This document shows positions 33,016 to 56,155 of a stretch of 57,894 nucleotides of DNA, piece by piece. The DNA is taken from assembly GCA_045634545.1 (NCBI GenBank), contig JAZRAL010000012.1, forward strand, positions 1-57,894, written 5' to 3'. The notes below the pieces were generated by a model. It was not told where the DNA came from, ran no database searches, and was given only the letters and a program-made list of their open reading frames with translations. The DNA comes from Alphaproteobacteria bacterium (GTDB lineage Bacteria > Pseudomonadota > Alphaproteobacteria > RF32 > CAG-239). The position numbers and the translations under genes were made by a program. Positions within the stretch are counted from its first letter, which is position 1. Each line of letters begins with the position of its first letter.

Positions 33016-33017
33016 TT

Positions 33018-33830: not shown

Positions 33831-33883
33831 CAAATATCTACCTCGTCATCCCTTAATTGCTCTCTCCCCATACTCCTTACCCC

Positions 33884-33924: not shown

Positions 33925-33937
33925 CAAATTAAAACCA

Positions 33938-35014
33938 CTACATATCAATTCCTAATCTTCTTTTTATTTTACTGAAAAAAGAAGCACCATTCTCTTTTTC
34001 ATTTCTCTTTTTAACAGCATCCATTATAGCTTTTTGTGTTCTATTACCATATGCAACCATCATTGCATTTTGACCTTTATTATTTTTTTGATTAACATCT
34101 GCCCCATTTTGAATTAAAAGTTCCACAATTTCTTTATATCCTTTTTCTGAAGCCCACATTAAAGCTGTCTTACCATCATTACTCTGAGCATTAACATTTG
34201 CACCTTTTTGAATTAATAATTCCACAACTTCCTTACAACCATATTCTGAAGCCCACATCAAAGCACTTCCTCTCATTTTATCTCTTATATTAACATCTGC
34301 TCCATTTTTAATTAAAATTTCAACTACTTCCTTATAACCTTTTATTGAAGCCCTCATCAAAGCTGTCTTACCATACTTATCTTGTTCATTAATATTAGCT
34401 CCTTTTTGAAGCAGTAATTCCACAACTTCTTTATTTCCAAATTCTGAAGCCCATATCAAAGCTGTTACTTTAGACACATTATTCTTCACATTAATGTTAG
34501 CCTCATTTTGAATTAAAAACTCCGCAATTTCTTTATGACCTTTACATGAAGCATATATCAAAGCTGTATCTCCCTGAGAATTTTCAACATTAATATTTGC
34601 TCCATTTTTTATCAAAAGCTCCACAATTTCCTTATGTCCTTCATATGATGCTCCCATCAAGGCTGTAAAACCATTATCTAATTTTGCATTAACATCAGCC
34701 CCCATATCAACTAATTCATTAACCTTTTCAATATCCCCATCTTTTTTATTACAAACCTCTATTAAATCCCAACCAAGCTTTTGTGCAGTTTCTTCATCAA
34801 AAATATCTTTTCCACCTTTTTCTTTTAGAAATTCTATAATTTTCGGCTCATCTACCTCATTTGCAAGCTTTAATGCAGACTTCGCTCCATACATAGCATT
34901 AACATCAACGCCAAGTCTAACTAGCATATCAATCTTGGCAAGCTTAATATTTTCCGCCATTTCTTCGTCTTTAATAATCTCAATCAATTGGCTTTCTAAC
35001 GTTACTTCACTCAT
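33938..35014 (-). CDS. Ankyrin repeat protein ank5 (subtype B)
   Basis: GxTALMxASxxGxKEIVELLIxxGA repeats; termini most similar to ank2. Confidence 0.95.
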   Translation of the reverse strand: MSEVTLESQLIEIIKDEEMAENIKLAKIDMLVRLGVDVNAMYGAKSALKLANEVDEPKIIEFLKEKGGKDIFDEETAQKLGWDLIEVCNKKDGDIEKVNELVDMGADVNAKLDNGFTALMGASYEGHKEIVELLIKNGANINVENSQGDTALIYASCKGHKEIAEFLIQNEANINVKNNVSKVTALIWASEFGNKEVVELLLQKGANINEQDKYGKTALMRASIKGYKEVVEILIKNGADVNIRDKMRGSALMWASEYGCKEVVELLIQKGANVNAQSNDGKTALMWASEKGYKEIVELLIQNGADVNQKNNKGQNAMMVAYGNRTQKAIMDAVKKRNEKENGASFFSKIKRRLGIDM

Positions 35015-38831: not shown

Positions 38832-39425
38832 ATGAAAAAGATTTTAGTTTGTTTTTTTGCTTTTATGACTTTTGTTCAATCTGCTGTAGCTGCGATAGAT
38901 AAAGACAATGCTGTTGTAATGGTAGAGAATTTAACAAAAGAAGGAATTGAAAAAATTATAAATTCAAATTCTTCTGCAGAAGAGAAGAATAATGTTTTTC
39001 GTAAACTTTTTACAGAGAATTTGGATTTAGATTTTATTGGTAAATATGTTTTAGGTCGCTATTGGAGAATTGCTACACCTGCTCAGCAAAAAGAGTTTGT
39101 TAAGCTGTATAAAGAATTTAACGTGAAGACATGGTCAAAAAGGTTTGATGAATTTAAAGGAAAGAAATTTTCTTTTTTAGGTACAAGTTCTTCAAATAAT
39201 CCAGATCAAGTTTTTGTGGATACAGAGGTTCCTATGGATGGGACAAAGCCAGTTAGCGTTAAATGGCGAGTTAGTGAGAAAAAAGGCCAAATGAAAATTA
39301 TTGATATAATTATTGAAAATGTTAGTTTGGCCCAGACTGCTCGTAATGAATATACATCTTTTATTGCTAAGTCTCCAAAAGGAATTGAGGGGCTTTTGGA
39401 TAATTTGCGACAAAAAGTAAATTAA
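38832..39425 (+). CDS. mlaC: MlaC/Ttg2D phospholipid shuttle protein
   Basis: Signal peptide, VLGRYWR, IIDIIIENVSL...RNEY; adjacent to mlaA. Confidence 0.88.
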   Translation: MKKILVCFFAFMTFVQSAVAAIDKDNAVVMVENLTKEGIEKIINSNSSAEEKNNVFRKLFTENLDLDFIGKYVLGRYWRIATPAQQKEFVKLYKEFNVKTWSKRFDEFKGKKFSFLGTSSSNNPDQVFVDTEVPMDGTKPVSVKWRVSEKKGQMKIIDIIIENVSLAQTARNEYTSFIAKSPKGIEGLLDNLRQKVN

Positions 39426-39480: not shown

Positions 39481-39509
39481 TTGACAATTGTCTAAAATAA
39501 TGCTATCCT
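39481..39509 (+). promoter_or_regulatory. sigma70 promoter of the giant gene
   Basis: TTGACA-N17-TATCCT with TGn extension. Confidence 0.65.
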
Positions 39510-39541: not shown

Positions 39542-42500
39542 GTGATGACTAGGAAACTAATATTTGTAGTGGCTGCCGCGCTAGGTATTGTGTGGTCCGG
39601 GGTCTCAGAAGCTAAGGTTTGCCGACTCGGTGATGAAGGCTGTGAGACTAGTGAATTTTTTGGTACAGGAGATGGTCAATGTGACGCATCTTATAAACCT
39701 TGTCTAGATCCACGTGCAGGTGCTACGTATTGTTATGGAGTTTATGGCGGCGGAGATACTCCTCAAGCGTTGTATCGTGATGAAGATTGTTGTTCTAGTC
39801 TAGCGGCAAATGGTTATCAGGAATGTCTTATAAATGAAGGGAAGGCAGGGTATGGTCTTTCTTGTCGTGGTGCTGTAAGTAATACTACATATTGGCAGTA
39901 TTGTGGTTGTTCTTACGGTTTTGTTGAAGTTGATGAAAGTGGTCTTATTAATGGAGGTATTGTTGAAGACTTAATCAGCGGAGATTTAGTTCCTTATGAA
40001 TCTAGGTGTGGAGAAGCTGGATGGGGAATTGGTGAATGTCAGTTTGCTCAATGTAATGAAGATAGACGATTTTTCTATGAAAATGGTGGGGAGCATTGTA
40101 AATATAGATTAGGTACTCGTTGTGGTGGTTTTGGGTGTATGCAAGTATATGATTGTAACCACGATGAAGAAGTTATAGATACAGGTAAAGAATATTACAG
40201 AAATGAAAATCATTTCTTGGCAGATGGTGTGCAAAACTTTATTCCTTTTTATGGGGAAGATCTTGTTTCTAATGAGCGTCTTTCTGATGACGTTGTTAAA
40301 TTAATTCTTGCTACATCAAATAGACAGGTGCCACCTTTTGTGGAAGGGGTTCATTATGAGGATTACAATGTTGTAAATCGCTATGTTTGTAGATATATCA
40401 AGGAAGATGGAAATAAAACCACTCATGATGTAGAAGATACTGGAGGTGGTTTTAGCTGTAATACTGTTCCAAATTATTGCTATTTGTGGGATGGATGTAA
40501 TGAAGATAGACGTTGGTATAATAGTGGAGCATCAACAGAGCCTGTAAACGCAGGTGCTATATATAATAGTGACTTATATTATCAAATTTGGCTTAACGTT
40601 GTTGAAAAAGACGCAGATTACCATCCTGAAAATGTTCATGCTGGTGAAATACCTCAGCATCTTAATTTTTATAGAGATGGTGATGTAAATCCTACATATG
40701 GCTTATACGAGCCGATAGAAGGTTCTATTGATGGAAAAAACTTATCTCTTTGTACTTTAGAAAACGGATGTATTAGAGATGATAAGGGATGTACATATAT
40801 TAGAGGCGACTGCCATCAAGACGGTGTTGAATATCCAAGTCACCGTTGTTGGAAAAAAGTTTCATGTACAGAAGAAAATCGTTTCTATGCATCATTTATG
40901 AATGCCGCAACAATTTCTGTAGATAGTGATGGTAATATTACAGGGGAAACAAATAATTTATATGAATCATCTTTAAGTGAGCCATATTATACTGGTTTTT
41001 ATGGCGCTTTAGAAGACCCTGAGACAGAAATATATCCAGCTTGCGTATATGAAATAAATAACTGTAATGACGCAACAGGTTGTTATCGCAAATCATTAGC
41101 AACTGGATGTATAGAGGATTTTGAAGATGTTAGAGAACATTTAACAATTGAGGATGACTGGACACCTTGGTTTGAGTTCTTGTGGCCACTATGTAATGAC
41201 AATACTCGTTGTTATAAAGCAACATCTTGTGATTTATCAATGGGTGCATATTCATCAGAACCAAACACTTTATTCTTCCAAACCATTAGCTCAACCGCTA
41301 CTGGTTTAACATGTTATAAAGGTGTAGATTGTTATTATGAATATGGTGCATATTCATCAGAACCAAATACATCATTCTTTAGTGCTATAAATTCACATGC
41401 AACAAGTTCTATTTGTTATCGAGGAGAAAGTTGTCATTTAGAAGCTGGTGCTTATTCATCTGTTCCAAACCTTTATTTCTTTAAAATAGATGAATCTATA
41501 GCATCAGGCTCTACTTGCTATCGTGGTGTAGAATGTTTAGGTTTAGATAGCGGCGCATATACATCAGAACCAAACACGTCATTCTTTAATACAATTGGTT
41601 CAGCAGCGTCAAGCTCTACATGTTATCGTGGTACAAGTTGTAATATAGATGCAGGTGCTTATTCTTCTATTCCAAATACCTTATTCTTTGAATTAAGTGA
41701 TTCTTCTGCATCTGGTTCTATTTGTTATCGTGGTGATAGTTGTTACTTTGAAATAGGTGTATATTCATCAGAACCAAATACTTCATTCTTTGAAAATATA
41801 GACTCACTTGCGTCAGGTTCTACATGTTATAGAGGACAAAATTGTAATTTTGACAGTGGTGCATATACATCAGAACCAAACACATTGTTCTTTGATGCTA
41901 TTAGCTCAATAGCCACAGGTTCTACATGTTATAGAGGACAAGGTTGTGATATCGAAATAGGTGCATATTCATCAGAACCAAATACCTTGTTCTTTAAGAC
42001 TATTTCTTCTTTAGCAACAGGTTCAACATGTTACCGCGGTGAAGCTTGTAATGTAGAAATGGGTGCATATACATCAGAACCAAACACATCATTCTTTGAA
42101 TTAATAGATTCTCATGCAACAGGTTCAACATGTTATCGTGGAGATTCTTGTCATATAGATGCTGGTGCTTATTCATCAACACCAAACACATTGTTCTTTG
42201 CTGTATTTTCATCAACGGCATCAGGTAGTACTTGCTACAGAGGTGTAGAGTGTTTGGACAAAGATGGAGGTGTTTATACATCAAGTCCAAATACAGAATT
42301 CTTTAACGTTATACATTCGCTTGCATCAAGTTCAGGATGCTATCGTGGTGAATCATGTAACATAGAACAAGGTTCATATTCATCAGAGCCAAATACTTCA
42401 TTTTTTGAAGTTATCAATTCTTCTGCGTCTGGTTCAATCTGCTATCGTGGTAAAGACTGCTATATTGAAGCAGGTGCTTACGGGACAACTCCTAATGAAG

Positions 42501-45500
42501 AATTCTTTAATGTAATTGAATCTGTTGCTACAGGATTGACCTGTTACAGGGGGGAAGATTGTAATCTAGAAAAAGGTTCATATTCATCAGAACCAAACAC
42601 AGTATTCTTTATTGCAATTAACTCTATAGCTTCAGGTAGTACATGTTATAGAGCAGAAGATTGCGCAGAAACAGCTATAAGCGAGGAATTAAAGAACACA
42701 AGTTTCTTTGTATTTATATCATCGGCAGCAACTGGTTCTACATGTTATCGTTCAACATCTTGTCGTTTTGATGTTGGTGCATACTCTTCAACACCAAATA
42801 CATCATTCTTTGATGTTCTAAATTCTATGAATGCATTACAAGACTCAACATGTTATCGTGGCGGTGGGTGCAATATTAAAGCAGGCGCATATACATCAGA
42901 ACCAAATACATCATTCTTTACATTTATAACATCCCTAGCATCAGGAAGTACATCATATCGTGTAGATGGATATTGTGCTGATTGCGGTGCGTATACATCA
43001 ACACCAAACACATCATTCTTTGATGTTATAACATCTTTAGGCTCTGGCTCTATAGTCTACAGGGCTCAAGGTGAGCATCTAGCAGCAGGATCTTACAAAT
43101 CAGAACCAAATACATCGTTCTTTATGAATATTTCATCAATAGCTTCAGGAAGTGTTGCATACCGAAGTGAAGAATCACACATTGCGGCTGGTGCATATTC
43201 ATCAAGTCCTAACCCATTGTTCTTTAATGTAATTGTGTCACACTCATCAGGCAGTATTTCTTATCGTGCAGATAGAGCAAGTTCTGATACAATAGAAACA
43301 AATACATCATTCTTCCTTGGTATTCATTCTTTAGCATCAGGCAGTATTGCTTATCGTAGTGAAAAAGCACACCTTGCAGCCGGTGCTTACTCATCAACAC
43401 CAAATACATCATTCTTCTATGTGATTTCATCATATGGATCAGGTTCTATTGCTTACCGTGCTGAGAATACACACTTTGCAGCGGGTGCATATACATCAGA
43501 ACCAAATACGACATTCTTTAATACAATACATTCTGTTGCATCAGGTAGTATTGCATATCGTGCAGATAAACATTGTGAAGATTGCGGATCTTATGGAACA
43601 TCTCCAAATACATCATTCTTCTTGAATATTTATTCTGTGGCATCTGGTAGCACATCATATCGTGTGATAGATCAACATATAGCTGCTGGTGCATACAAAT
43701 CAGAGCCAAATACATCATTCTTTGATGTAATAAAATCTCTTGGTACTGGTATTGAAGCATATAGAGCTCAAGGAGCACACCTAAAAGCAGGTGCATATTC
43801 ATCAGCTCCAAATACATCATTCTTCTTAAATAGTACATCAGAAGCATCTGGTAGTACTGCATATCGAGGAGATGCAGCTCATATTAAAGCAGGTGCATAC
43901 ACATCAGAACCAAACTTAGCATTCTTTATTGTTGATAAATCATTAGCTTCTGGTTCTACATGTTATCGTGGAGCAGAATGTGCAATAAGTGCTGTTTCAG
44001 GAGAAAGAACCAACTCTAGCTTCTTTGTATATACACAATCTGCAGCATCAGGTTCTACATGTTATCGCTCATCAGCATGCCGTCTTGATATTGGTGCATA
44101 CTCTTCTGCACCAAATACATCATTCTTTAATGTATTAACATCAACCAATGCTCAAAATGACTCAACTTGTTACCGTACAGATGGTTGCAATATTAAAGCT
44201 GGTGCTTATAGTGCAGCTCCAAATACATCATTCTTTAAGTATGTAACATCTGAAGCATCTGGTAGTATATCATATCGTGCAGAACAACATTGTGCTGATT
44301 GTGGTGCATACACATCAAAACCAAATACATCATTCTTTATTGTGATATCATCTCATTCATCAGGTAGTATTTCTTACCGTGCAGAGTCTTCACATCTTAG
44401 AGCCGGTGCATATACCTCAAGTCCTAATACATTATTCTTTAATGTTATAAAATCAGTATCATCTGGAAGTACATCATATCGTGCAGAAAGTGTAGATTGG
44501 TTAAAAGGTAACTATTCATCAAGTCCAAATACATTATTCTTCAGCACAATTAGATCACATGCATCAGGTTCATCTGCGTATCGTGCGGATACAGCTAAGC
44601 TCTTAGAGGGTGCTTATACTTCAGCTCCAAATACATCATTCTTTATCTATAGCTATTCTCATGCATCAGGTATATATGCATATCGTGGAGATGAAATTCA
44701 CCTTAAAGCAGGTGCTTATACTTCTGCGCCAAACACAATGTTCTTTAACACTATAAGATCTCTTGCTAGTGGAACAATATCTTATAGAGCAGATGGAATC
44801 TGTAAAGCAGATGTATGCGGTGGAGGTACACCACATGTTTATACTAAAGAACCAAATACATCATTCTTTAATGTATTAGAATCATCAGCATCTGGAAGTA
44901 AAGCATACCGTTCAGATGGTCCTGGAATAGGTGCATACAGCTCATCACCAAATACATCGTTCTTTATCGTGATAAGTTCAAAAGCTTCAGGAAGTGTCGC
45001 TTATCGTGGTGAAAAATCACATATTGCAGCAGGTGCATATTCATCAACACCAAACCCATTGTTCTTTGATATAGTTATATCACTTGCTTCAGGTAGTATA
45101 TCTTATCGTGCTGTTGAAGCAAACTTTAATCGTGGTGCTTATACTTCTAAGCCTAATACATCATTCTTTATAGGTTTATCATCACATGCGTCTGGTTCTA
45201 CATCGTATCGTACAGGTCCTGTAAACCTACAAGCAGGTGCTTATACATCAAGTCCAAATACATTATTCTTCTATGTAATTAACTCAAAAGCTAGTGGCTC
45301 TATTGCATACAGAGGTGAAAGAGTACATATTGAGGCAGGTGCTTATACTTCTGCACCAAACACTATGTTCTTTAGCACCATAAAATCACTTGCTTCAGGA
45401 AGTACATCATATCGTGCAAGTGGCCAAGGTGGTGGCGGTTATTCTGAAAAACCAAATACATCATTCTTTAATCTTGTTGATTCAAAAGCCAGTGGTTTAA

Positions 45501-48500
45501 CCTGTTACAGAGGAACAAGTTGTCGTGAAAATGTAGGTACATATACATCGACACCAAACACATCTTTCTTTAAGGTTATAAAATCTACTGCTTCTGGTTC
45601 TGCATGTTATCGTGGTCAAGAATGTGCTACATCTGCTAAAACACAAAAACAAATGAATGAACCTTTCTATATTTCAAGTATAAGTAATAGAGAATACTAT
45701 TATACATATTTCTTTGGATTTGTTAACTCAAAAGCATCAGGTTCAACATGTTACAGAGCAAAAACATATTGTCCGACAGTTTCTGCGTTTGCTAACTATA
45801 CTACAGCACCAAATACATCATACTTTGTAAACGTATCACTTAAGGATACAACATTAGACGGATATACTGGTACATGTTATATTGCAGACCATTGTCATAC
45901 AGCCGCTGGTGCATATTCATTTAAGCCAAATGAATTATTCTTTGTAAATTCAAGCGCAGTAGCATCAGACGTTGGTTGTTATAGAGGAAATAAGTGTGTA
46001 AATGCTGCTTATGACACAACACCAAACACATTGTTCTTTACCGTGATAAGTTCTAAAGCATCTGGTAGTACATGTTTTAGATCTACAGGATGTAATACCA
46101 AAGTTGGTGCATACACAGCAAAACCAAATACAATGTATTTTGATGTGATAGAATCATCTGCATCAGGAAAGACATGTTACAGAGCAAAAGAATGTTCAGA
46201 AAATGCTATTGATACTAAATTAAGTTCATCATTCTTTGTTACTTCATTCTCTAACTCTTCTGGTACCGATTGTTATCGTGGTGATGTTTGTCACCAAAAA
46301 GCAGGTGCATATACAGATGCTCCAAATGCATACTTCTTTGAAGTTGCAGAATCTCATTCGCCAACAGAGAGTTGCTATAGAGGTACAGCATGTAGTAGCA
46401 CTGCTGCTCCAAGCCAAAATACATCATTCTTTAGAAAAGATACATATCAATTATCCATTGCATCAGGTTCAAGATGTTATCGAGGTAAAGATTGTAATGC
46501 CGCTGCTGGAGCGCATACATCAGAGCCAGATAGATTATACTTCAATACATCAAAGAAAACTGAAGGAACAACATGTTATCGTGCAACAAGTTGTAACAAA
46601 TCAGAGGGTGCAGTAACTGAAGCTGAACATAATACAGCATACTTTAATTATACATCAAAAACAGCTTCTAGTTCAACATGTTATCGTGCAACAAGTTGTA
46701 ATACAGCAGCTGGCGCTTTAACCAATGCAAATATAAATACTGTATTCTTTAAATATTCGCAATTAACTCATACAGGTAACACATGTTATAGAGTAAGTAG
46801 TTGTTCTGAAAAAGCATCAGACCCTAAGAATACATCATATTTCACAGGAAGTTTTGATCAAAGTACACAATCAGGTAAAACATGTTATCGTGGTAAAGAA
46901 TGTCATATAGCTGCTGGTGCATACACATCAAAACCAAATGCATCATTCTTTAATGTGGGTGAAAAAGTGGAAGGTACTACATGTTATAGAGGAACATCAT
47001 GTAACTCTTCAGCGGGTGCTTATAAAACTTCAGAAACAGAGATATACTTTAACTATATTAGTTCTACAGCAAGTAAATCAACATGTTATCGTGCAACAAG
47101 TTGTAATGAAGAAAATAGTTCACCAACTGAGCCATATTTTGATAACGTAGGTGATGATGGTGTTGATGCATTCTGCGGTATAAGCACTACTATTCAAACA
47201 GGTATTAAATGTTATTATCCAACGAAATGTAAAGAAGATCCTTGTTCAAATCCTCCTTGTAGTGCACCTGATTATAGTTGTGGTGATGTAACAGATTATA
47301 GGCAATATTGTAACTGTTGTGAAGCAAAATTGATACATGAGGAACTACCGGGGCTAAATACAACATATTCAAAAGCTAAAGAATATTATATAACTAAAGT
47401 AACAAAGGAATTTGCTGGTAAAAAATGTTATGGTATTGCAGGATGTGCAAGTGGAGAGGAATATCCTGAAGGTTGTGATACAAAATACTTTAAACCAGAA
47501 TATGGTCCTTATTGCAATGTATCTTGTGGAAACCCTCAAAGAAAAGATGAGTGTCACTTAGATGAGGAAGAGATAGGTACTTATAGTCATGCTAAAATCT
47601 ACATATGGGGTAATGAAAAAACTTGTGGATATTTAACTCTAAAAGAAGCAATAGGTTGTAATGAAGCAAATAATTCATATCCATTAGGTACAGTATTTGA
47701 CAGAGTTAAAAACCAATATGGGCAATACTATGACTTTGATGAAGTGTTTAAGGCTTACTCAAATATTTCAAAATGTGAAGGTACAGCGGGTAAATGTTTA
47801 CACCTATGTTCTTGCCGTGGTGATTTAGGATGGAGCTCAAGCAAAGTTAACGGCAAACCATATATAGAAGTTACAACAGATCAATTTAGTAGCGGTCAAT
47901 TAGGAAATGATACTACAACATCATCAATAATTCCTACATTAAGCAATACTACACCATTTGGTCCAACTATTAGAGAAGGTATGTTGGTATCTGAGATGAC
48001 ACCAATTGATGTGTATGCTAATACTACATCACTTTCATCAAGTAAACAGCTTCTTGCATCAACAGAGGGTAAGGCAACATGCTATAAATCTGTAGATTGT
48101 CCAGATGGTTATGTATTCTTTGGAAAAGGTAAAGACTATTATACTCAACGTGCAGGTACTGCGCATAGATGGATTTGGGCAAATACAGGTGACCCAGTAA
48201 AAGATAACTATTGTGCTATTAAACAATGTTCATCTGAATATTTTGTGCCAGAAGATGATGGAAGTTACGACTGCTCAGATATAGACGGCTTCAGCTGTTG
48301 TAAAGAACGAGATGAAGATAAGGTTTGTCCTGATTACTTTGTATTTAACTTTAACTATTCACTATCATTGCAAATGGCATCGGAAAACTGTTTCTCACCA
48401 GATATTAATAATTGTGCTGAAAAGTTGAATAACCTTACGGTGACATATTCATTTGCTCACCCAGATGCTTCAGTTAATACAAATGGTATATCTGTGGAGG

Positions 48501-51500
48501 ATAGCGATGATTTCCTTGATGTAGATGCATTTGGTTTCATGTATAATTTGAGGAATACTTCAACTGGTGCAATATCAGAAACGGATAGCATGCCTCATCA
48601 TGCAACATGTAAAAACATTAACTATTCTGGGACTCAAGGTATATGCGCTACAGATATTAATAGTTCAACACTTACAATATATAATGTAGAATCAACAGGA
48701 GGTAATTATTATACAACAACTGGTTGTAGTGGTTCAGGTAGTATATGCCGTACATTTGATGGGTTTGATGGAATTATAGTTAAAGGCAAAACATACAGAG
48801 ATGGAAGTAAAATAAAAATAAAATTAAATAACCATTATCAAGGTATTACAAAAGAATGTGAGCCAACAGTAAGATTTAATGAACCAGAAAAATGTCCAGA
48901 CGGCTACTTTGTAGATAAACCAGATGGAAATTACTTCTCATATGATACAAAAACACTTTCTGATGGAACTAAGTGTTACAAAGCAAGATGCGGTGGTAAC
49001 TATGGCCTATCATCTACAGAGAGCGGTCAATCACTAGCAACATATCATGATATAAACTGTTACTGCCCAAGTGGTACATACTACTACTCTGATCCAGAAG
49101 AAGCATACAGAGGCGTTGATCAATTCTACTTTAAGGAAGGACGTGTTCCTGGGTGTTATGAAGCTGCATGTAAATATCCACAAGGTAGAGCAGATCTGCT
49201 ATTTAGTGGCTATGGCGTAGTGAATTGTCCAGGAGCTCCATGTTATACAGGTGGTGGGAGTATGCCTGCAGACCAAATGAGTAAGCCTTCTAATGCAGAT
49301 ACGTACTTTGACTATGATTCTGTAACACATGAATATGATGGAAAAACATGTTACTATAATATAGATTGTAATAGTGATAGAGGGTACACAAGTACTGACA
49401 CAAGAATAGGTTGTAGAACATGGGGTAGTAAAACATGTTGCCAAGATTGTCCTACAAATTCATTCTATAGTGAAACAAAACCTGAAGATGATACCGCTCA
49501 TATCTTTACAAACTCAGTATCTGGCTCTAACTGCTGGAAAATAGAATGTAATGAGGAAAATGGATATTATTTAGGGGGACCTAATGATGTTCATTCATTA
49601 GGAAGTAGTTTTGGGGTTGATTCTGTAAGTTGCGGTAAAGGTGGTTGTCCAGAAGGATACTATACAACAAAGCCAAATCTTGATTATTTTGTAATTATAG
49701 ATCAAAAGGAAATAGGTGACTATATTTGTTACAAAGCAGATTGTGCTTCAGGATACTCATCATCTGCTAAAAATACTCCAAACTCAGTTGGTGGAACATG
49801 GCATGGTCATGCGTGTTATAAAGAGATGGAAACAGAGTGTCCTCAATACATCAAGTACTTCATAAGTTACAATAGAGATACTGGTACAAATCTACAAGGT
49901 CAATATACTAAAATAAATAATTTCTCTGTTAGATATGAAATAGATGGAGATGGAGATAGTATAACAGTTAAAGGTCCTCATCAAGAATTTGGTATTCAGG
50001 CTTCGATTGAAGGATGGAGTAATTCAACAAGTTTACCATACGTACTAGATTGTCCTTTAACCTCAAGTACTCTAAATCAATGTGTTGATAAAAGTGATGA
50101 AACTGATTATGGACTAGATGAATCCGGATCATTAGATGTATGCCAGTATGATGGTGCAAGCATTTGTGATTGTTCATCATGTGTGTTTACTGAAATTACA
50201 GGTATCTACATTAATGGTAACTACATAGGTGAGAATAATGGTTCTAACACTACAATAATTAGCATAGATAATGGAGCAGGAGGCAAAGATTGCAATGTTC
50301 CTGTATATTATGAGATAAATGGAGATGGTGGAGACCTTCCAGAACCTGAAGAAGAATGTCCTGCAGGATATTACGAATATACAATGGATCCAGATACCAG
50401 ATACTTTAATGTTGTAGATAGTGGTGTTACAATAAATGGTAATAAATGCTTACAGGTAAATGGTTGTCAAGCAGGATATGTAAATGCACAAGCTTACACA
50501 GCTAAAAACTTACCATTACCTAGTCCTGTTAGTGGAGTTTCTGGTCCTCAAGGAACTTGGTATTGTTATAATGATGTGATTACAGTTGGTTACTACTTCT
50601 ACTGCGATGGTGGATTTGAAGGAGAAACTGATGCAGCTCTACAACAATACAATGGTACATATAATAAACTAAGTTCAGTATCATATATCAATCAACAAAC
50701 ATGTGATTTTTATTATGGTGTAGGTGGAACCAGTTATCCAGAATGTAACATTGCTGGATGGGTTGGAACACTTTCCGGTGCGGTACCTGTTGCTAATGAC
50801 GAAATAGAAATTAATTTTGATGGTTACCAAGCTTATACTTCTCAGATAACAGGTTGTGGAGATACAGCTACTCTTACTACAACATATAAATGTACATATC
50901 AAACACAAAATGGTGAATCAAGATACTTCTGTACGATGCCTGGTGGTACAGCAATTGGTGGAAATGATTTTGCTAATCCATTTAAAGATGAAAATAGTGG
51001 TGTAGTGCCATATTGCAGCCAAAATGGTCAGACAGGTAGTTATACTTGTGAACTAAACAGAGCTGGTACAAATAGCCTAATTTCATCAAGTACGGAGGTA
51101 TTATCTGGTTTGAAATTGAGATATCCTGCAAATGGATTAGTTGCAGACATTCCAAATAGTAAGATTACTTATCTCCCATTGAACTATAATACAAATACTG
51201 GCAATTTGAGGATTCACCACCTATATTATAATGGTAGTTCATATGTTTCAGCAGCAAGTACAGCCTTCAATAAAGGTAGTGTAGTAAGTTGTCCATCTGG
51301 TTCTTACTACTATGGATATGCATCTCCATTAAGAGATGATTCTATATATGAATATACCGAAGTTGGTGGTAATGGTTCTGGTTGTTACAAAGTAGCATGT
51401 GATGAGACCATAGAACTAGGTGTATATAGTGCCGCAATGGATACTACTAAATCTATAGCATCACCACTTCTAACAAGCCCTGCTGCAGGTGAAACCAATC

Positions 51501-54500
51501 CTATATATACAACACCATTAAAGACATGGGATACAATAGCTACAGCTAATGGAATAAAATGTTATTTATCACCTCAACCAACACATATTGTAAAATATTA
51601 TGAGCCATATTATAGTGGTTCAGGTACTTCATCAGGTGACGAAACATGTTACAATGTTGTAGGTGTTGACTTTATCCGTGGTGGAATAGAGCGCTATAAT
51701 AGTTATACCGGCGAACTTTTCGATACTATTGAAGCAGAAGATGTTTCTGATAGATTTACAATAGATAGTATCAATTCTGTTGGCTATGGAACAACTAAAT
51801 GTAGTGGAGGCTATCTAGACAGTGGTTCTACAAATTATCTATTTAACCACCTCCGTTCTAATAGAAGCTTAGAGAGTAATTACATGAGTGCTGTCTACAC
51901 CTGTGATAGTCAAGGAAGAGCAACAGCTTGTATTGATAAATTCAATGATTATCGTACAAATGTATTCTCTGGAGATACACTTAATAGAACTTTATTAACT
52001 CCATCCATAGGTAACTGCCATTACTCTCAATATGAATTCCAAAATATGTCGCCTTACCAACAGGAGGAAGAGTATTCGTTCTATCATAGTAAGAGTAGCA
52101 CAATATATGCCGGCAGAACTTTAACATTAATTGAACAGAATGATTATACAAGACGAAATGCTATATTTAATGATGATAATGGTTTTGTTACAGTATCACT
52201 TCCAACAAAAGAAACCAAAACCACTGCTCCGGGAGTTCCAGGTAATTCTGTAACAATAGACACTCAACCAGCAGAAGTGAGAGTCCCATCAGGGGTATCT
52301 ATAAGTGACGTTCATTTTACTGCTACATATAAAGTAGATTGTTATGCAAATAATTCAACATCACCAACAAGTAGTGCAAACATAACCCATACATTTAATG
52401 GTACAAATACAGAAGTATTAGGAACACATACTTGTGGAACAGCTAACGGCAATGCGCCTTACAGTGCAAAAGTAACTCTTAAAGGCATTTCTATACAATC
52501 TATTCCTTCTGGATATGGATTACGTTATCAACACAAGAATAAGAATATAGGATCTAGTGTTACATACGATGATAAAACTAGCGGTATTATAACAGCACCA
52601 ACAGGATATGGGGTAGCTACAAAATCTTCTAATAAATGGGGTGGAAGATGTACATCACCACTTATCTATGATGTAGATATTCCAGTTCCAGATGATGATG
52701 AGTGTCCTGATGGATTGTACTATTATGACGAAGATCCAAATGATACATATGCAAATGATGAAACAAACCCATATGTATATACACAAGACGATTCTAATCC
52801 AAATTGTTATAGCATAAGTTGTGGATTTGTTACACATGATTTTGCTAATTATACTGTAACGAGAAATTTAGCGACAGTAGCTCCAGCAATAGCAGGATTT
52901 AATGAGCCAATTAAATCAAAAGATACAAAAGCTAACTCCGTAAAACAATGTTATTTATCACCAGAACCAACACACTGGGTACTCTATTATGATACCTATA
53001 AGAGTGGTAGCTATAAATGTTATGAACCAGTGGGTACTGATTATCTACTAGGTGAATCATATTTTAACGGTGGACGCAGGGGAGTGTATAAAGATACAAT
53101 AGATGTATCTCGTTACTATAGAATAACAGACGTTAATAGCCAAAATATGATGGCAACAGAAGAGAATTGTACAGATGAAATGCTAAAAGATAATGAGTTT
53201 ACTGCAATAGATTACTATGATAGTTATCCTAGTAGCAAATTAAAAACAATTAATTCATATCTAAACTGCACAGGATCAGGGCAAAATTATGAGGCAGATG
53301 CTTGTATTTATACGGTAGATGAGTATCAAACTGATCTTAACGTCTTTAGTAACATGACTGAAAATCACGTTGGAAACTGCACTAAATTAAATAGCATAGC
53401 CACAGAACTTGCTACTAGTTTAGTATATGGCGTGACAATTAAAGATACTAACGGAGAAGTAATAAAGTATAACCGAATAACACATCCAGATGATGCCGCA
53501 GAGGATAGCGATACTGATAAAACCTTATTTATTATATCTGAAGAAGTTTATGAAGATCATCATATAAATATAAAATCAAATGATGATGAAGGGTTTGTTA
53601 CTGCACAATTTGGATATGAATATAATATTAGTGGAAATAATAAAACGCTAGAACTTAGCAACAAAGCAACTTATTTCCCAGATACAAACTCTGAAACAAA
53701 CACATCATTTATGTTTGTGATGAATGTAAGTAAGTGCATGCTTGATGGTTCAGATAACTATAGCTATGTATATAAATATGAAAATGGTACAGGATACTGG
53801 ACAGAGAAGATAAATGGTAATGTTAACAGAACTGAATATGGCTCTTCAATTAGTAAAACATTTTATACTACAAAAAGTTGGAATTCACCTAAATATGAGT
53901 CATCCGCAGAATGTGCTCCTACATATTACCTAACCGCTAATGGAATAGGTGATTATGGTTTCCGTTGGACAATGGGGTCAATAAAAGATTCAGGAATTTT
54001 AGGTGGAGGTGTATTGAAAACACCTAAGAGCTATGGAAGAGTAAAACAAGGTGACTGGGGTGGTAGATGTGAAGAAAACAAAGGAACAACATCTGGTATT
54101 GTAGCAGAATGTCCTCAAGGTGATATAGTATTTGATAGAACTGATCCTGATGTAGATAGATTATTCTATAGCGAAACTATTGATGGCAGAAGCTATAGCC
54201 CAATAACAGATTTCTATGATTTAACACGCGCTAATAGTCAATTGTATTGCTTATCACCTACAGCTACATGTAAAACAACATTAACGACGTATGATGAATG
54301 GCTCGATAGTGAAGAATGGGTTGGTGAATTCTCCGAGGCAATTTATGATGAAACTGGCAATGAAAATATAATTGACATATACGATGGATTAGGTGTGATG
54401 GCTGATAATAATGGGTATTGTGTAAAATCAGCTGATAATTCTTGTCCAGATGGATATGTATCATCACAAACATCACCTGCTCCAAGCACACAGTATTTTG

Positions 54501-55903
54501 ATGTTTCATATACTTCTACAGCTAATGGAACAATGTGTTGGAAATCTGACGACTGTAATAATAGTAATCGTTACTATGCATACAGTAGTAGCGCAAACCT
54601 AGATTGTCATGAAGCATATAGTTCTAAAGGCAATTTGATGAAATGTTGCCAACAAGAATACTATTTAAATTGTACTTATAAAGTACCAGAAACACCTAGT
54701 GGACAAACTTATATATTAACAGAAAATATTAATGGGATGTCTGGATTGTATGGTGAAGTGAGTTGTTCATGGTTAGATGGAAAGTTCCCAATAAGCAATT
54801 ATTGCAACCCTCTAAATAGAACTCTATATATCAAAGATAAGGAAGTTCACTATGGTGCAAATCCAACATCAATAAACACAGTAAATAAAAATTATAAGCT
54901 TTATAATGATATTATTTATCAAAGTACCTTAAACTCAACATTTGTTGTTGGAGCTGGTCAAGTACCATTATCAACAAGTTCTGTGTCAGGTGTGTATGTA
55001 TATGACTACATTGATAATGGTAGTTTATATGCAACAGCTAAGATTGTAAATGAAGGTACATTATATGCATGTGATTCTAACGGAAATAATTGTAAAACAA
55101 GCGCAACTACAACATGTAGTGGAGGTGAAACTGTTACTGTAAATTACAATTCTAATTATGTAACACCTCCGGATACTGAAACTACAGGTTGCGATATCGG
55201 ATATACAAGTACGTCAAGCTTGATATTAGAGCGAGCTCAATGGGATGTAACAAAATATACCTTAAGTGATGGAACTACTTGTGCTAAAGCAAGTTGCAAA
55301 AGTGATGCAATAAGTAGTACTACTCTAAAAACTGGATATACTTGCACAATGAACCCTGTTACAGGAACAACACCATATTGTTGTATGGAATCAACTACTG
55401 AATATCCAAATAGTTATGAAATCACTATTATTCAAGATTGTGATACTATTAATGATGTGTGCTCAGTAAAAGTAACAGGCCTAAATTTTGTACTTGACAG
55501 CGGATCTATGATATTGCCAGATGATAGTACCATAAATCCTACAACTTTTGATGTTTATGTTTCTCCATACGTAAATAATATAAGACATGTAAGTTATAGC
55601 GGAACTTTTAATACATTAACGGAAGTATATTACAAAACCAATAGCCTTACAGGCTGGAGTACATGTTTTGATTCTCTTGGACAAAACGAGTGCACAAGAC
55701 CTTCTGAAATAACAGGTTGTGAAACAGCATTAACAAATAGCACTTATATTAAAGCTCCTGATGGTAGTATAGATGCTGATAATCCGCTAGGAAAGATTAC
55801 ATTCACAATAAATGGAGTATCAAAGACAGTGGGGATACATGAACTAAATGTGCTTTGTACTGTAGCTGGCTCTGGTTCTTCAACGCTTCAGCCTATGAAT
55901 TAA
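39542..55903 (+). CDS. Giant (5453 aa) secreted cysteine-rich tandem-repeat protein of unknown function
   Basis: Uninterrupted ORF; Sec-type signal peptide ending ...VSEA; own promoter and terminator. GTG 39542 and ATG 39545 are both possible starts. Confidence 0.9.
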   Translation: MMTRKLIFVVAAALGIVWSGVSEAKVCRLGDEGCETSEFFGTGDGQCDASYKPCLDPRAGATYCYGVYGGGDTPQALYRDEDCCSSLAANGYQECLINEGKAGYGLSCRGAVSNTTYWQYCGCSYGFVEVDESGLINGGIVEDLISGDLVPYESRCGEAGWGIGECQFAQCNEDRRFFYENGGEHCKYRLGTRCGGFGCMQVYDCNHDEEVIDTGKEYYRNENHFLADGVQNFIPFYGEDLVSNERLSDDVVKLILATSNRQVPPFVEGVHYEDYNVVNRYVCRYIKEDGNKTTHDVEDTGGGFSCNTVPNYCYLWDGCNEDRRWYNSGASTEPVNAGAIYNSDLYYQIWLNVVEKDADYHPENVHAGEIPQHLNFYRDGDVNPTYGLYEPIEGSIDGKNLSLCTLENGCIRDDKGCTYIRGDCHQDGVEYPSHRCWKKVSCTEENRFYASFMNAATISVDSDGNITGETNNLYESSLSEPYYTGFYGALEDPETEIYPACVYEINNCNDATGCYRKSLATGCIEDFEDVREHLTIEDDWTPWFEFLWPLCNDNTRCYKATSCDLSMGAYSSEPNTLFFQTISSTATGLTCYKGVDCYYEYGAYSSEPNTSFFSAINSHATSSICYRGESCHLEAGAYSSVPNLYFFKIDESIASGSTCYRGVECLGLDSGAYTSEPNTSFFNTIGSAASSSTCYRGTSCNIDAGAYSSIPNTLFFELSDSSASGSICYRGDSCYFEIGVYSSEPNTSFFENIDSLASGSTCYRGQNCNFDSGAYTSEPNTLFFDAISSIATGSTCYRGQGCDIEIGAYSSEPNTLFFKTISSLATGSTCYRGEACNVEMGAYTSEPNTSFFELIDSHATGSTCYRGDSCHIDAGAYSSTPNTLFFAVFSSTASGSTCYRGVECLDKDGGVYTSSPNTEFFNVIHSLASSSGCYRGESCNIEQGSYSSEPNTSFFEVINSSASGSICYRGKDCYIEAGAYGTTPNEEFFNVIESVATGLTCYRGEDCNLEKGSYSSEPNTVFFIAINSIASGSTCYRAEDCAETAISEELKNTSFFVFISSAATGSTCYRSTSCRFDVGAYSSTPNTSFFDVLNSMNALQDSTCYRGGGCNIKAGAYTSEPNTSFFTFITSLASGSTSYRVDGYCADCGAYTSTPNTSFFDVITSLGSGSIVYRAQGEHLAAGSYKSEPNTSFFMNISSIASGSVAYRSEESHIAAGAYSSSPNPLFFNVIVSHSSGSISYRADRASSDTIETNTSFFLGIHSLASGSIAYRSEKAHLAAGAYSSTPNTSFFYVISSYGSGSIAYRAENTHFAAGAYTSEPNTTFFNTIHSVASGSIAYRADKHCEDCGSYGTSPNTSFFLNIYSVASGSTSYRVIDQHIAAGAYKSEPNTSFFDVIKSLGTGIEAYRAQGAHLKAGAYSSAPNTSFFLNSTSEASGSTAYRGDAAHIKAGAYTSEPNLAFFIVDKSLASGSTCYRGAECAISAVSGERTNSSFFVYTQSAASGSTCYRSSACRLDIGAYSSAPNTSFFNVLTSTNAQNDSTCYRTDGCNIKAGAYSAAPNTSFFKYVTSEASGSISYRAEQHCADCGAYTSKPNTSFFIVISSHSSGSISYRAESSHLRAGAYTSSPNTLFFNVIKSVSSGSTSYRAESVDWLKGNYSSSPNTLFFSTIRSHASGSSAYRADTAKLLEGAYTSAPNTSFFIYSYSHASGIYAYRGDEIHLKAGAYTSAPNTMFFNTIRSLASGTISYRADGICKADVCGGGTPHVYTKEPNTSFFNVLESSASGSKAYRSDGPGIGAYSSSPNTSFFIVISSKASGSVAYRGEKSHIAAGAYSSTPNPLFFDIVISLASGSISYRAVEANFNRGAYTSKPNTSFFIGLSSHASGSTSYRTGPVNLQAGAYTSSPNTLFFYVINSKASGSIAYRGERVHIEAGAYTSAPNTMFFSTIKSLASGSTSYRASGQGGGGYSEKPNTSFFNLVDSKASGLTCYRGTSCRENVGTYTSTPNTSFFKVIKSTASGSACYRGQECATSAKTQKQMNEPFYISSISNREYYYTYFFGFVNSKASGSTCYRAKTYCPTVSAFANYTTAPNTSYFVNVSLKDTTLDGYTGTCYIADHCHTAAGAYSFKPNELFFVNSSAVASDVGCYRGNKCVNAAYDTTPNTLFFTVISSKASGSTCFRSTGCNTKVGAYTAKPNTMYFDVIESSASGKTCYRAKECSENAIDTKLSSSFFVTSFSNSSGTDCYRGDVCHQKAGAYTDAPNAYFFEVAESHSPTESCYRGTACSSTAAPSQNTSFFRKDTYQLSIASGSRCYRGKDCNAAAGAHTSEPDRLYFNTSKKTEGTTCYRATSCNKSEGAVTEAEHNTAYFNYTSKTASSSTCYRATSCNTAAGALTNANINTVFFKYSQLTHTGNTCYRVSSCSEKASDPKNTSYFTGSFDQSTQSGKTCYRGKECHIAAGAYTSKPNASFFNVGEKVEGTTCYRGTSCNSSAGAYKTSETEIYFNYISSTASKSTCYRATSCNEENSSPTEPYFDNVGDDGVDAFCGISTTIQTGIKCYYPTKCKEDPCSNPPCSAPDYSCGDVTDYRQYCNCCEAKLIHEELPGLNTTYSKAKEYYITKVTKEFAGKKCYGIAGCASGEEYPEGCDTKYFKPEYGPYCNVSCGNPQRKDECHLDEEEIGTYSHAKIYIWGNEKTCGYLTLKEAIGCNEANNSYPLGTVFDRVKNQYGQYYDFDEVFKAYSNISKCEGTAGKCLHLCSCRGDLGWSSSKVNGKPYIEVTTDQFSSGQLGNDTTTSSIIPTLSNTTPFGPTIREGMLVSEMTPIDVYANTTSLSSSKQLLASTEGKATCYKSVDCPDGYVFFGKGKDYYTQRAGTAHRWIWANTGDPVKDNYCAIKQCSSEYFVPEDDGSYDCSDIDGFSCCKERDEDKVCPDYFVFNFNYSLSLQMASENCFSPDINNCAEKLNNLTVTYSFAHPDASVNTNGISVEDSDDFLDVDAFGFMYNLRNTSTGAISETDSMPHHATCKNINYSGTQGICATDINSSTLTIYNVESTGGNYYTTTGCSGSGSICRTFDGFDGIIVKGKTYRDGSKIKIKLNNHYQGITKECEPTVRFNEPEKCPDGYFVDKPDGNYFSYDTKTLSDGTKCYKARCGGNYGLSSTESGQSLATYHDINCYCPSGTYYYSDPEEAYRGVDQFYFKEGRVPGCYEAACKYPQGRADLLFSGYGVVNCPGAPCYTGGGSMPADQMSKPSNADTYFDYDSVTHEYDGKTCYYNIDCNSDRGYTSTDTRIGCRTWGSKTCCQDCPTNSFYSETKPEDDTAHIFTNSVSGSNCWKIECNEENGYYLGGPNDVHSLGSSFGVDSVSCGKGGCPEGYYTTKPNLDYFVIIDQKEIGDYICYKADCASGYSSSAKNTPNSVGGTWHGHACYKEMETECPQYIKYFISYNRDTGTNLQGQYTKINNFSVRYEIDGDGDSITVKGPHQEFGIQASIEGWSNSTSLPYVLDCPLTSSTLNQCVDKSDETDYGLDESGSLDVCQYDGASICDCSSCVFTEITGIYINGNYIGENNGSNTTIISIDNGAGGKDCNVPVYYEINGDGGDLPEPEEECPAGYYEYTMDPDTRYFNVVDSGVTINGNKCLQVNGCQAGYVNAQAYTAKNLPLPSPVSGVSGPQGTWYCYNDVITVGYYFYCDGGFEGETDAALQQYNGTYNKLSSVSYINQQTCDFYYGVGGTSYPECNIAGWVGTLSGAVPVANDEIEINFDGYQAYTSQITGCGDTATLTTTYKCTYQTQNGESRYFCTMPGGTAIGGNDFANPFKDENSGVVPYCSQNGQTGSYTCELNRAGTNSLISSSTEVLSGLKLRYPANGLVADIPNSKITYLPLNYNTNTGNLRIHHLYYNGSSYVSAASTAFNKGSVVSCPSGSYYYGYASPLRDDSIYEYTEVGGNGSGCYKVACDETIELGVYSAAMDTTKSIASPLLTSPAAGETNPIYTTPLKTWDTIATANGIKCYLSPQPTHIVKYYEPYYSGSGTSSGDETCYNVVGVDFIRGGIERYNSYTGELFDTIEAEDVSDRFTIDSINSVGYGTTKCSGGYLDSGSTNYLFNHLRSNRSLESNYMSAVYTCDSQGRATACIDKFNDYRTNVFSGDTLNRTLLTPSIGNCHYSQYEFQNMSPYQQEEEYSFYHSKSSTIYAGRTLTLIEQNDYTRRNAIFNDDNGFVTVSLPTKETKTTAPGVPGNSVTIDTQPAEVRVPSGVSISDVHFTATYKVDCYANNSTSPTSSANITHTFNGTNTEVLGTHTCGTANGNAPYSAKVTLKGISIQSIPSGYGLRYQHKNKNIGSSVTYDDKTSGIITAPTGYGVATKSSNKWGGRCTSPLIYDVDIPVPDDDECPDGLYYYDEDPNDTYANDETNPYVYTQDDSNPNCYSISCGFVTHDFANYTVTRNLATVAPAIAGFNEPIKSKDTKANSVKQCYLSPEPTHWVLYYDTYKSGSYKCYEPVGTDYLLGESYFNGGRRGVYKDTIDVSRYYRITDVNSQNMMATEENCTDEMLKDNEFTAIDYYDSYPSSKLKTINSYLNCTGSGQNYEADACIYTVDEYQTDLNVFSNMTENHVGNCTKLNSIATELATSLVYGVTIKDTNGEVIKYNRITHPDDAAEDSDTDKTLFIISEEVYEDHHINIKSNDDEGFVTAQFGYEYNISGNNKTLELSNKATYFPDTNSETNTSFMFVMNVSKCMLDGSDNYSYVYKYENGTGYWTEKINGNVNRTEYGSSISKTFYTTKSWNSPKYESSAECAPTYYLTANGIGDYGFRWTMGSIKDSGILGGGVLKTPKSYGRVKQGDWGGRCEENKGTTSGIVAECPQGDIVFDRTDPDVDRLFYSETIDGRSYSPITDFYDLTRANSQLYCLSPTATCKTTLTTYDEWLDSEEWVGEFSEAIYDETGNENIIDIYDGLGVMADNNGYCVKSADNSCPDGYVSSQTSPAPSTQYFDVSYTSTANGTMCWKSDDCNNSNRYYAYSSSANLDCHEAYSSKGNLMKCCQQEYYLNCTYKVPETPSGQTYILTENINGMSGLYGEVSCSWLDGKFPISNYCNPLNRTLYIKDKEVHYGANPTSINTVNKNYKLYNDIIYQSTLNSTFVVGAGQVPLSTSSVSGVYVYDYIDNGSLYATAKIVNEGTLYACDSNGNNCKTSATTTCSGGETVTVNYNSNYVTPPDTETTGCDIGYTSTSSLILERAQWDVTKYTLSDGTTCAKASCKSDAISSTTLKTGYTCTMNPVTGTTPYCCMESTTEYPNSYEITIIQDCDTINDVCSVKVTGLNFVLDSGSMILPDDSTINPTTFDVYVSPYVNNIRHVSYSGTFNTLTEVYYKTNSLTGWSTCFDSLGQNECTRPSEITGCETALTNSTYIKAPDGSIDADNPLGKITFTINGVSKTVGIHELNVLCTVAGSGSSTLQPMN
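41243..47104 (+). repeat. Intragenic tandem array, ~57 units of ~102 bp (34 aa)
   Basis: Manual count of units with consensus GAY(S/T)SxPNT(S/L)FFxxIxSxASGSTCYRGxxCxxxA. Confidence 0.92.
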
Positions 55904-56059: not shown

Positions 56060-56155
56060 AAATAAAAAAGCCACTGCTGTGGGGGCAACAGTGGCACGGG
56101 TTTGTTAAGGTCTTATATATCTTTAGGTTATATTCTTATTCTTTATTACTATCTA
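56060..56155 (-). ncRNA. Candidate small RNA (~95 nt)
   Basis: Minus-strand promoter TTGAAT-N17-TATATT (56189-56161), terminator gccactgttg-ccccca-cagcagtggc-tttttt, no ATG in between. Confidence 0.45.

Follow-up and report, generated by a model that had tools for sequence, protein, structure and literature searches.

The 57,894-nt stretch of DNA analyzed here (the window; contig JAZRAL010000012.1 of an uncultured alphaproteobacterium) carries a gene for a giant cysteine-rich protein whose N-terminal part is constant and whose tail is polymorphic. The constant part consists of a signal peptide, an acidic head, and a long array of tandem 34-residue units, and the tail is a chain of unique domains joined by short cysteine modules. 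The tail varies at the level of cassettes between strains of the species, and relatives carry silent, inverted copies of alternative tails. We favor, with moderate confidence, a giant Sec-exported, disulfide-bonded fiber, displayed on the surface or secreted, with a variable binding or antigenic tip. This protein, which no database names, takes about 1% of a reduced 1.6-Mb genome. Its lineage, widespread in gut and rumen but uncultured, has ankyrin arrays, a type IV secretion system (T4SS), and a type IVb pilus as well. An earlier sequence-only reading of the window had outlined the protein; the covariation of its paired cysteines, the split between constant N-terminal part and polymorphic tail, and the relatives' silent inverted cassettes are additions to that outline.

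Constant and variable parts of the protein

The window is the whole of contig C12 of a metagenome-assembled genome (MAG) of 1.60 Mb (31.9% GC, 65 contigs, 90% complete). The open reading frame (ORF) at 39542..55903 (+) is a single intact frame of 5453 residues counted from a GTG codon. Because an ATG at 39545 directly follows the GTG and orthologues begin MTK or MSK, 39545 is probably the true start, which would give a protein of 5452 residues. The sequence-only reading had listed a secreted protein with an acidic cysteine-rich head of about 540 residues, some 57 tandem 34-residue repeats, and a tail of about 2900 residues joined by degenerate copies of a cysteine module, and all of these parts were recovered (Table 1). 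The signal peptide (MTRKLIFVVAAALGIVWSGVSEA, followed by mature KVC) was judged from hydropathy and its n-h-c layout rather than by a signal-peptide predictor, and it is the only segment of the protein to reach a Kyte-Doolittle value of at least 1.6. The head is 6.4% cysteine and has a net charge of -53. Its alignment from 12 orthologues (A2) has a mean column identity of 46% and about 30 invariant cysteines.

The array was delimited by 57 [YF]R anchors between residues ~561 and 2517, spaced mostly 34 residues apart, and Tandem Repeats Finder (TRF) reports a period of 102 nt. The consensus unit is G-x-x-C-x-x-x-A-G-A-Y-S-S-x-P-N-T-S-F-F-x-x-I-x-S-x-A-S-G-S-T-C-Y-R, and G9, Y11, F20, S25, Y33, and R34 are invariant across the 34 units that are exactly 34 residues long. 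The middle of the array (residues ~1140-1960, nt 42960-45420) is one contiguous block of units without the pair of junction cysteines considered below; a histidine usually follows the lost cysteine position, and units with a local C-x-x-C are interspersed. The family proteins P0002 and P0003 show a similar cysteine-less block structure in their arrays. Behind the array, a junction motif (C-x3-C-x-C-x5-GW, residues 2752-2764, nt 47795-47833) is common to family members.

Table 1. Positions of the giant gene, its parts, and the adjoining upstream features in the window.
Feature	Residues	Position (nt)	Strand	Remarks
mlaA		37996..38802	+	upstream of giant gene
mlaC		38832..39425	+	directly upstream of giant gene
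Promoter-like site		39481..39509	+	TTGACA-17-TATCCT, TG-extended; in the 116-bp gap behind mlaC
Signal peptide		39542..39610	+	cleavage after SEA; sole hydrophobic segment; same n-h-c layout in orthologues
Acidic Cys-rich head	24-567	39611..41242	+	mature N terminus KVC invariant
Array of about 57 tandem 34-residue units		41243..47092	+	[YF]R anchors, TRF, covariation
Post-array Cys-rich segment and Ser/Thr-rich linker		47093..48097	+	last part of constant region
Variable modular tail	2853-5453 and stop	48098..55903	+	ten Cys modules
Cys modules 1-5 of tail	2853-2896, 3118-3150, 3175-3210, 3303-3336, 3369-3401
Cys modules 6-10 of tail	3606-3642, 3917-3953, 4388-4427, 4968-5005, 5217-5252
Segment lost in one strain		48097..49644	+	in-frame, 1,548 nt; run X4 contig joins 48096 to 49645
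Internal tail duplication, copy 1	~3989-4150	51506..51991	+	phmmer E = 3e-11
Internal tail duplication, copy 2	~4453-4610	52898..53371	+	phmmer against copy 1

The tail contains ten modules of the type CP.GY...P..YF...C[YW]K..C between residues 2853 and 5252. When it was cut at these modules, only the modules scored against family members, and they also scored against true array units; they are therefore degenerate copies of the 34-residue unit that serve as connectors. The bodies between the modules are 24-540 residues long and unique apart from one internal duplication, the only significant one detected by phmmer; self-BLAST of the tail gave no matches. Residues 2521-4020 have no relative among 40 related genomes and residues 3988-5453 have none in the five closest relatives. 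In an index of 5.8 billion proteins, the only relative of the tail was the giant protein itself.

BLASTP against nine orthologues aligned only the signal peptide, the head, and the array, at 36-59% identity. Complete orthologues are 1,907-3,417 residues long and contain 21-35 strict PN..FF units; none of their tails is significantly similar to that of the giant protein or to the tail of another orthologue. A sister-group population provided 31 close alleles of about 1,840-2,380 residues. Their mean pairwise identity is 92-98% in the head and proximal array and 34-64% in the tail, the distal array is rich in insertions and deletions, and the proteins end in about 13 different ways at the C terminus, with 14 alleles having the same ending.

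In other strains of the species that contains the giant gene, the head and array are matched at no less than 99%, and cover of the tail is patchy; tail parts without cover in some metagenome runs were not counted as absent. One strain has an in-frame deletion of 516 codons (run X4) that joins 'CPDGY' of the module at residue 2853 exactly to 'CPEGY' of the module at residue 3369. The evidence is one 3,272-nt contig, which reaches 255 nt past the joint on its shorter side, with 9 nt shared. On its left side the deletion begins where the junction linker ends; therefore, residues 1-2852 behave as the constant part and the modules as cassette borders. These data reveal cassette-level variation of the tail between strains of this species and divide the protein into a constant and a variable part.

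Inverted tail cassettes in relatives

Inverted cassettes were found in three of the five other loci with downstream sequence (G004, G072, and G021). In G004, two convergent ORFs of 518 and 318 residues without start codons lie behind the expressed gene. Both run from the junction motif to a tail-type C terminus and have the extent of complete alternative tails, and the 518-residue ORF has its counterpart in the entire tail of another allele, P0049 (residues 1600-2129; E = 7.5e-210; 61% BLASTP identity). Inverted repeats of 413 nt (92%), 187, 94, and 69 nt join the expressed junction region with the two ORFs and with another, third copy where the contig ends. The two cassettes are adjacent to each other, and no small immunity-type ORF lies between them. 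In G072, a 228-nt inverted repeat (90%) links the tail to a tail-like ORF at the contig start, and in G021 a 45-nt inverted repeat (93%) reaches the contig end. The repeat arms and the cassettes of these relatives begin at the post-array junction region, the last part of the constant region. The ORFs between the arms encode an AAA_14/DUF4143 ATPase and an unassigned 718-residue protein; in G004 the contig ends.

The protein P0042 is 100% identical to the G004 protein over 1,650 residues and diverges just behind the junction, and P0041 does likewise at 97%. Such a pattern would be expected if silent tails exchanged with expressed ones by inversion or gene conversion. As judged from their sequences, the relatives hold silent inverted tail cassettes, which would make up an undescribed cassette-inversion system on a giant secreted protein.

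Covariation of paired cysteines

Retention and loss are coupled between the cysteine that precedes Y-R and the one at the fourth position of the following unit. At the 40 scorable junctions of the giant protein, both cysteines are present in 20, neither in 20, and a single one in none (Fisher P = 1.5e-11, which overstates the significance because related sequences are not independent; the pattern is nonetheless all-or-none). The corresponding counts across 36 family proteins are 163, 112, and 3. Mean-field direct coupling analysis (DCA) was performed on 307 distinct two-unit windows with an effective number of sequences (Neff) of 221. The top coupling is 32-4' (z 12.4), the junction cysteine pair. 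Second comes 5-8, with z values of 10.1 and 9.0 in the two unit copies; it matches the local C-x-x-C that some units have. The pairs 1-27, 14-22, and 25-29 were each found in both unit copies, an internal replication. Being kept or lost together is the signature of a disulfide, and the junction pairs are predicted to form such bonds, which would tie consecutive units through a seven-residue loop, C-Y-R-G-x-x-C. The unit itself may be a small beta-meander with strands at positions ~9-14, 19-25, and 30-34 and turns at P-N-T and A-S-G. For structural work, the unit would represent a new kind of short repeat stapled by disulfides.

Integrity of the gene

The giant gene is a real, complete, and single gene. 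The longest exact repeat inside it is 30 bp, and the array units are 69-75% alike as DNA. In public gut metagenomes, all 4 of the 4 runs, each from a different study, provide contigs that overlap one another along the head and the entire array. Each contig shows 0-5 differences, so that both parts are tiled independently at 99% identity or more; no one contig from these runs covers the entire gene. Misassembly is unlikely because the exact repeats are short, the units differ from one another, and the independent contigs overlap.

The promoter-like site upstream (Table 1) matches at 10 of 12 positions and is a consensus match only, 3 such sites having been found against 0.9 expected. A short hairpin followed by a T-run is visible by eye behind the stop codon, where the terminator scanner made no call. 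A strong terminator-like hairpin with a T-run lies on the minus strand at 56070-56095, between the giant gene and the next gene, and no minus-strand gene ends there.

Distribution of the family

Pfam and NCBIfam scans of the giant protein, run as four overlapping pieces, gave nothing above noise. The NCBIfam matches were all far below threshold, and a Pfam match to DUF4278 (25.7 bits) was rejected as spurious, since no stretch passes on its own. At E ≤ 1, Pfam returned no TPS (two-partner secretion), autotransporter, or RTX match, and residues 1-600 gave 0 families. PHROGs and PADLOC had no match to the protein. HMMER searches of PDB sequences (E ≤ 1) found nothing for the repeat profile, the head profile, or the whole tail, and the ESM Atlas held no usable match for the head or for one tail cassette. 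The sequence-only reading had not recognized the repeat, and these searches likewise place it in no characterized adhesin repeat family. Pfam found no real domain in 19 family proteins; the two among them that gave matches (HEAT and DUF346) fit the repeat least well and probably do not belong to the family. No description of a family combining this head with a 34-residue array was found in the literature.

The repeat profile (A1) was built from 34 seven-unit repeat blocks and scored against 1.84 billion representative proteins. At E ≤ 0.001 it matched only 36 proteins (clusters), of which 22 reached E ≤ 1e-30; the longest has 5,764 residues. The four largest have a signal peptide, a 'KVC.LG' head, an array, and differing cysteine-rich tails, and every recorded source name of the family members is 'hypothetical protein'. 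The head profile (A2) detected 18 loci in a search of one genome per species (185,579 species). Every one belongs to a MAG titled as uncultured Alphaproteobacteria, in some cases with the label 'Acetobacter sp.', and the MAGs come from the guts of humans, ruminants, and other animals. The head is present in 22 of the 36 genomes of the genus and in 16 of its 25 high-quality ones, and the repeat was matched weakly in 3 genomes from two other genera of the same taxonomic family. Paralogues sharing the mature N terminus KVCxLG, for which the earlier reading had proposed a search, were absent from the giant gene's own genome. The giant protein has the signal peptide, the KVC head with conserved cysteines, and the 34-residue units with PN-x-x-FF and C-Y-R that characterize these proteins. 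These data assign it, on sequence grounds, to an undescribed, lineage-restricted family of gut and rumen Alphaproteobacteria.

Export and envelope functions of the genome

The giant protein contains no GGxGxD or LPxTG motif, no lipobox in its first 40 residues, and no second hydrophobic segment at the Kyte-Doolittle cutoff of 1.6. None of its four pieces matched an autotransporter barrel in Pfam, the C termini differ among orthologues, and a head with about 30 invariant cysteines would be atypical for a barrel. These Pfam, motif, and hydropathy checks agree with the sequence-only reading, which had seen no RTX motif, TPS domain, lipobox, C-terminal transmembrane helix, or autotransporter barrel. 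That reading had gone on to propose a new class of giant surface filament or adhesin. An undescribed family and the lack of a known export domain were borne out; the surface location, the filament form, the adhesive role, and a new export route are proposals that we take up in the Discussion.

The TpsB family (PF03865) had no match in the 90%-complete genome, and control genomes gave no match either. The sole secretin of the genome is encoded in a type IVb-pilus-like cluster (T2SSF, T2SSE, PilO, secretin, and TcpQ; contig C10, 3661-19799) that stands back to back with the T4SS genes virB2 and virB4. TcpQ is present in 34 of the 36 genomes of the genus and is core, compared with 22 of 36 for the giant head. 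Because the cluster is nearly universal, its co-occurrence neither supports nor excludes a role in export, and this line of evidence was set aside as uninformative. Three exported DsbA-like proteins with CGYC or CGHC motifs and long N-terminal extensions are encoded on contigs C25, C57, and C33, which favors the view that the giant protein is oxidized after export. The inventory of Dsb and pilus systems that the earlier reading had called for was therefore productive in part: DsbA-like proteins and a pilus cluster with a secretin were present, DsbB and VKOR were not detected, and nothing links the pilus cluster to the giant protein. In this gut anaerobe-like genome, the three DsbA-like proteins thus occur without a detected DsbB or VKOR.

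Genomic context and apparent gene loss

The order mlaA-mlaC-giant gene is kept in all 9 orthologous loci inspected. The MlaA lipoprotein bears at its C terminus an acidic extension (...YDFDMD-D/E...) that is conserved in every orthologue inspected. In this genome mlaA is single-copy, and the only mlaC paralogue is ~20% identical and lies on contig C39. Close mlaA and mlaC orthologues are confined to 23 of the 36 genomes, namely all those with the giant gene and G225, whose contig ends at mlaC. The degT gene is likewise 'missing' from giant-negative genomes. A UvrD tree covered 30 of the 36 genomes, the 6 left out being 5 beyond the 30-locus limit and 1 without a match; on it, the presence and absence of the giant gene requires at least 11 changes and forms seven positive/negative sister pairs without clustering. 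In the 'negative' genome G020, the contig ends within a minus-strand ORF with family-type cysteine modules; the G018 contig ends there too, and the G022 contig starts in an ankyrin array. With ankyrin repeats at one border and the array and cassettes at the other, the locus is probably lost from assemblies or bins, and its absences most likely reflect assembly or binning dropout.

The co-occurrence of mlaA and mlaC with the giant gene was considered as a functional module and rejected on the degT pattern, the UvrD tree, and the contig ends; as a dropout artifact, it provides no evidence for a functional link to mla. The degT-mlaA-mlaC-giant region seems to be lacking from 13 of the 36 MAGs, many of them rated 96-100% complete. 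Loci of this type leave metagenome bins and mimic gene loss, which calls for caution in pangenome studies of the lineage.

Five tandem ankyrin-repeat genes (29864-35014, -) lie 4 kb upstream of the locus, and their sequence has 121 matching places in the relative G022, where it ends contigs. A gene for a stand-alone T2SSE-family ATPase (28670-29770, +; 366 residues) adjoins an unassigned 247-residue ORF, away from the pilus cluster. Directly downstream of the giant gene is a gene (56301-57578, +) for a 425-residue Hsp70/MreB-like protein with an actin-fold ATPase; it is not the downstream neighbor in G006, G014, G020, or G021. The genome encodes at least 10 PMT_2-like (GT-C) membrane glycosyltransferase paralogues on contigs C64, C53, C18, C41, C50, and C39, and these enzymes could glycosylate Ser/Thr-rich exported proteins. 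A tandem PMT_2-like pair stands next to the giant gene in G006, G014, G020, and G018, but it is not adjacent here and was rejected as a partner of the gene.

Discussion

The explanation that we favor starts with Sec export, which would bring an elongated protein with disulfide bonds out of the cytoplasm; most likely the cell displays it on its surface or releases it from there. The head of ~540 residues with its invariant cysteines is likely cell-proximal because it is the sole part conserved at a protein end, and it may act as an anchoring or export-recognition module. The stalk would consist of ~57 beta-rich units, with the C-Y-R-G-x-x-C loop closing each junction except in the cysteine-less, histidine-containing middle block. 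The distal tail would be a series of cassettes, each with one degenerate unit and one unique domain. It may diversify by recombination at the repeat-derived modules and the junction region, and act in the gut as a variable ligand-binding and/or antigenic tip. Surface exposure, polarity with the head proximal, a binding function, and passage across the outer membrane are all points that we infer. If these hold, the protein is a clean case for how Gram-negative bacteria move very large, folded, cysteine-rich proteins across the outer membrane without a known module.

Several observations weigh against this explanation. No known export or anchor module was detected in the protein by the Pfam, motif, and hydropathy checks, and its tail domains had no match to known binding domains. 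The genome, at 90% completeness, yielded no DsbB or VKOR for the re-oxidation of DsbA. The beta-meander reading of the unit rests on a DCA sample that is small at this Neff. Cassette switching has its own difficulties. The loci of G006 and G014 have no inverted repeats, and no recombinase was seen between the arms in G072 or G021, whole genomes not having been searched. The giant gene's own genome has no second copy of any part of the gene as DNA or protein and no silent cassette, and its inverted repeats involving the gene are only chance-level AT-rich ones; the contig ends 2 kb downstream. A bolder version of the same proposal would make the protein a bacterial counterpart of protozoan variant surface proteins, with a new fold, an undescribed head-recognizing route across the outer membrane, and a tip reprogrammed through expressed and silent inverted cassettes to give a switchable binding or antigenic specificity. 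We regard it as speculative and somewhat unlikely in this full form.

The same variability could serve defense instead of attachment. A coat or shed fiber might act as a shield or decoy, its polymorphic tip selected to evade phage, host immunoglobulin A, or protist grazers. Tail hypervariability among alleles and strains together with the relatives' silent cassettes is classic for antigenic or receptor variation, and the lack of a recognizable binding domain suits this idea as well. The data in hand do not separate it from adhesion. A long stalk such as this one of 57 units, which would hold the tip far from the cell, is in general more typical of proteins that reach out to bind. We consider a shield or decoy unlikely. 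Retention in the envelope is distinctly improbable. Under this explanation the protein would be a structural or lipid-homeostasis component linked to mlaA-mlaC, either periplasmic or at the outer membrane's inner face, which would fit the missing outer-membrane export module, the constant mlaA-mlaC-giant order at the 9 loci, and, weakly given the silent controls, the negative TpsB search. Strain-level hypervariability and switchable tails are hard to explain in the periplasm, a fiber of 5,450 residues would seem too big for a normal one, and the mla co-occurrence is an assembly artifact.

A polymorphic toxin or contact-dependent effector of the CdiA or Rhs type, with spare tips downstream, shares the constant N-terminal part, the polymorphic C termini with a conserved junction motif at the border, and the spare tail copies in relatives. 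We consider it very improbable. The tails are 270-2,900 residues long, cysteine-rich, and modular, and no toxin family was found in the giant protein or 19 relatives. The spare cassettes lie side by side in inverted orientation, no small ORF of the immunity type separates them, and Pfam revealed no TPS domain, Rhs, or PT-VENN-type motif. Many disulfides are, moreover, incompatible with unfolded transport of the TpsB type. That the gene is a chimeric assembly or a decaying pseudogene is almost certainly wrong. Such an artifact might be suspected from the 65-contig metagenomic source, from the lack of a contig from another run that spans the gene, and from some repeat-internal joints in other runs. 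It is contradicted by a frame that stays open for 16.4 kb at 32% GC with no long exact repeat, by independent contigs that overlap across the head, the array, and the start of the tail, and by orthologues and family proteins with the same layout up to the lengths given above. The variable-tip fiber remains our preferred account of the protein.

Comparison with known systems

Giant repeat surface proteins such as LapA, MpIBP, and Giant1-5 are likewise very large and secreted, with a long repeat stalk and a distinct end region. MpIBP is described as an RTX adhesin with a long repeat stalk (PMC4083281), and Giant1-5 of Apilactobacillus kunkeei are reported as giant proteins diversified by intragenic recombination (PMC12863079). 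Giant1-5 resemble the giant protein in this recombination and in taking ~1% of a ~1.6-Mb genome. The RTX adhesins of type I secretion systems (T1SS; LapA, MpIBP) have GGxGxD repeats and a T1SS signal and no Sec signal, whereas the giant protein has a Sec-type signal, no GGxGxD, and no match to HemolysinCabind at E ≤ 1. The LPxTG and the Ig-like or beta-solenoid families of fibrillar proteins find no match in it; it differs from them in its diderm Sec signal, its unique 34-residue repeat with cysteine pairs, and a conserved end that is N-terminal and cysteine-rich. The exoproteins of two-partner secretion, such as FHA and CdiA, have the same order of signal peptide, conserved N-terminal module, long repeats, and variable C terminus. 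The giant protein has neither a TPS domain (Haemagg_act) nor toxin/immunity modules, and it is rich in cysteines that covary in pairs.

Furin-like and ephrin-receptor-like repeats and the variant surface proteins (VSPs) of Giardia combine a CPxGY motif, a high cysteine density, and variable surface antigens. The tail modules resemble such eukaryotic repeats (VSP, furin-like, GCC2_GCC3) at the level of the motif. In contrast, the tail pieces have no Pfam match at E ≤ 1, the modules are degenerate copies of the bacterial 34-residue unit, and the family occurs only in alphaproteobacterial MAGs. The Blastomyces adhesin BAD-1 is reported to consist mostly of short tandem repeats with a disulfide-dependent fold (PMC4600121). 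It is fungal and its repeat sequence is unrelated, homology being judged only from the negative family searches.

Inversion of the G segment of phage Mu switches tail fibers. The relatives' cassettes resemble the shufflon of IncI plasmids, described as switching the PilV tip adhesin through the Rci invertase (PMC5430464, PMC9045228). Inversions of surface-protein genes in Mycoplasma or Ureaplasma are reported as comparable switching (PMC3047005). Like the shufflon, the relatives hold inverted, start-less C-terminal cassettes that share a repeat with the expressed gene. The shufflon recombines at short sfx sites, whereas the relatives' arms are 45-413 nt long and 83-93% identical, and no counterpart of Rci was seen between them. 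The product is a pilin in the shufflon, a tail fiber in Mu, and a giant fiber in the relatives, and the inverted cassettes were seen in relatives only (G004, G072, and G021), with none found in the window or its genome. Shufflon loci are also reported to break assemblies (PMC5430464). A giant repeat surface protein with a variable tip and switching by inversion in relatives is a known kind of system; the family, the repeat, and their combination are new.

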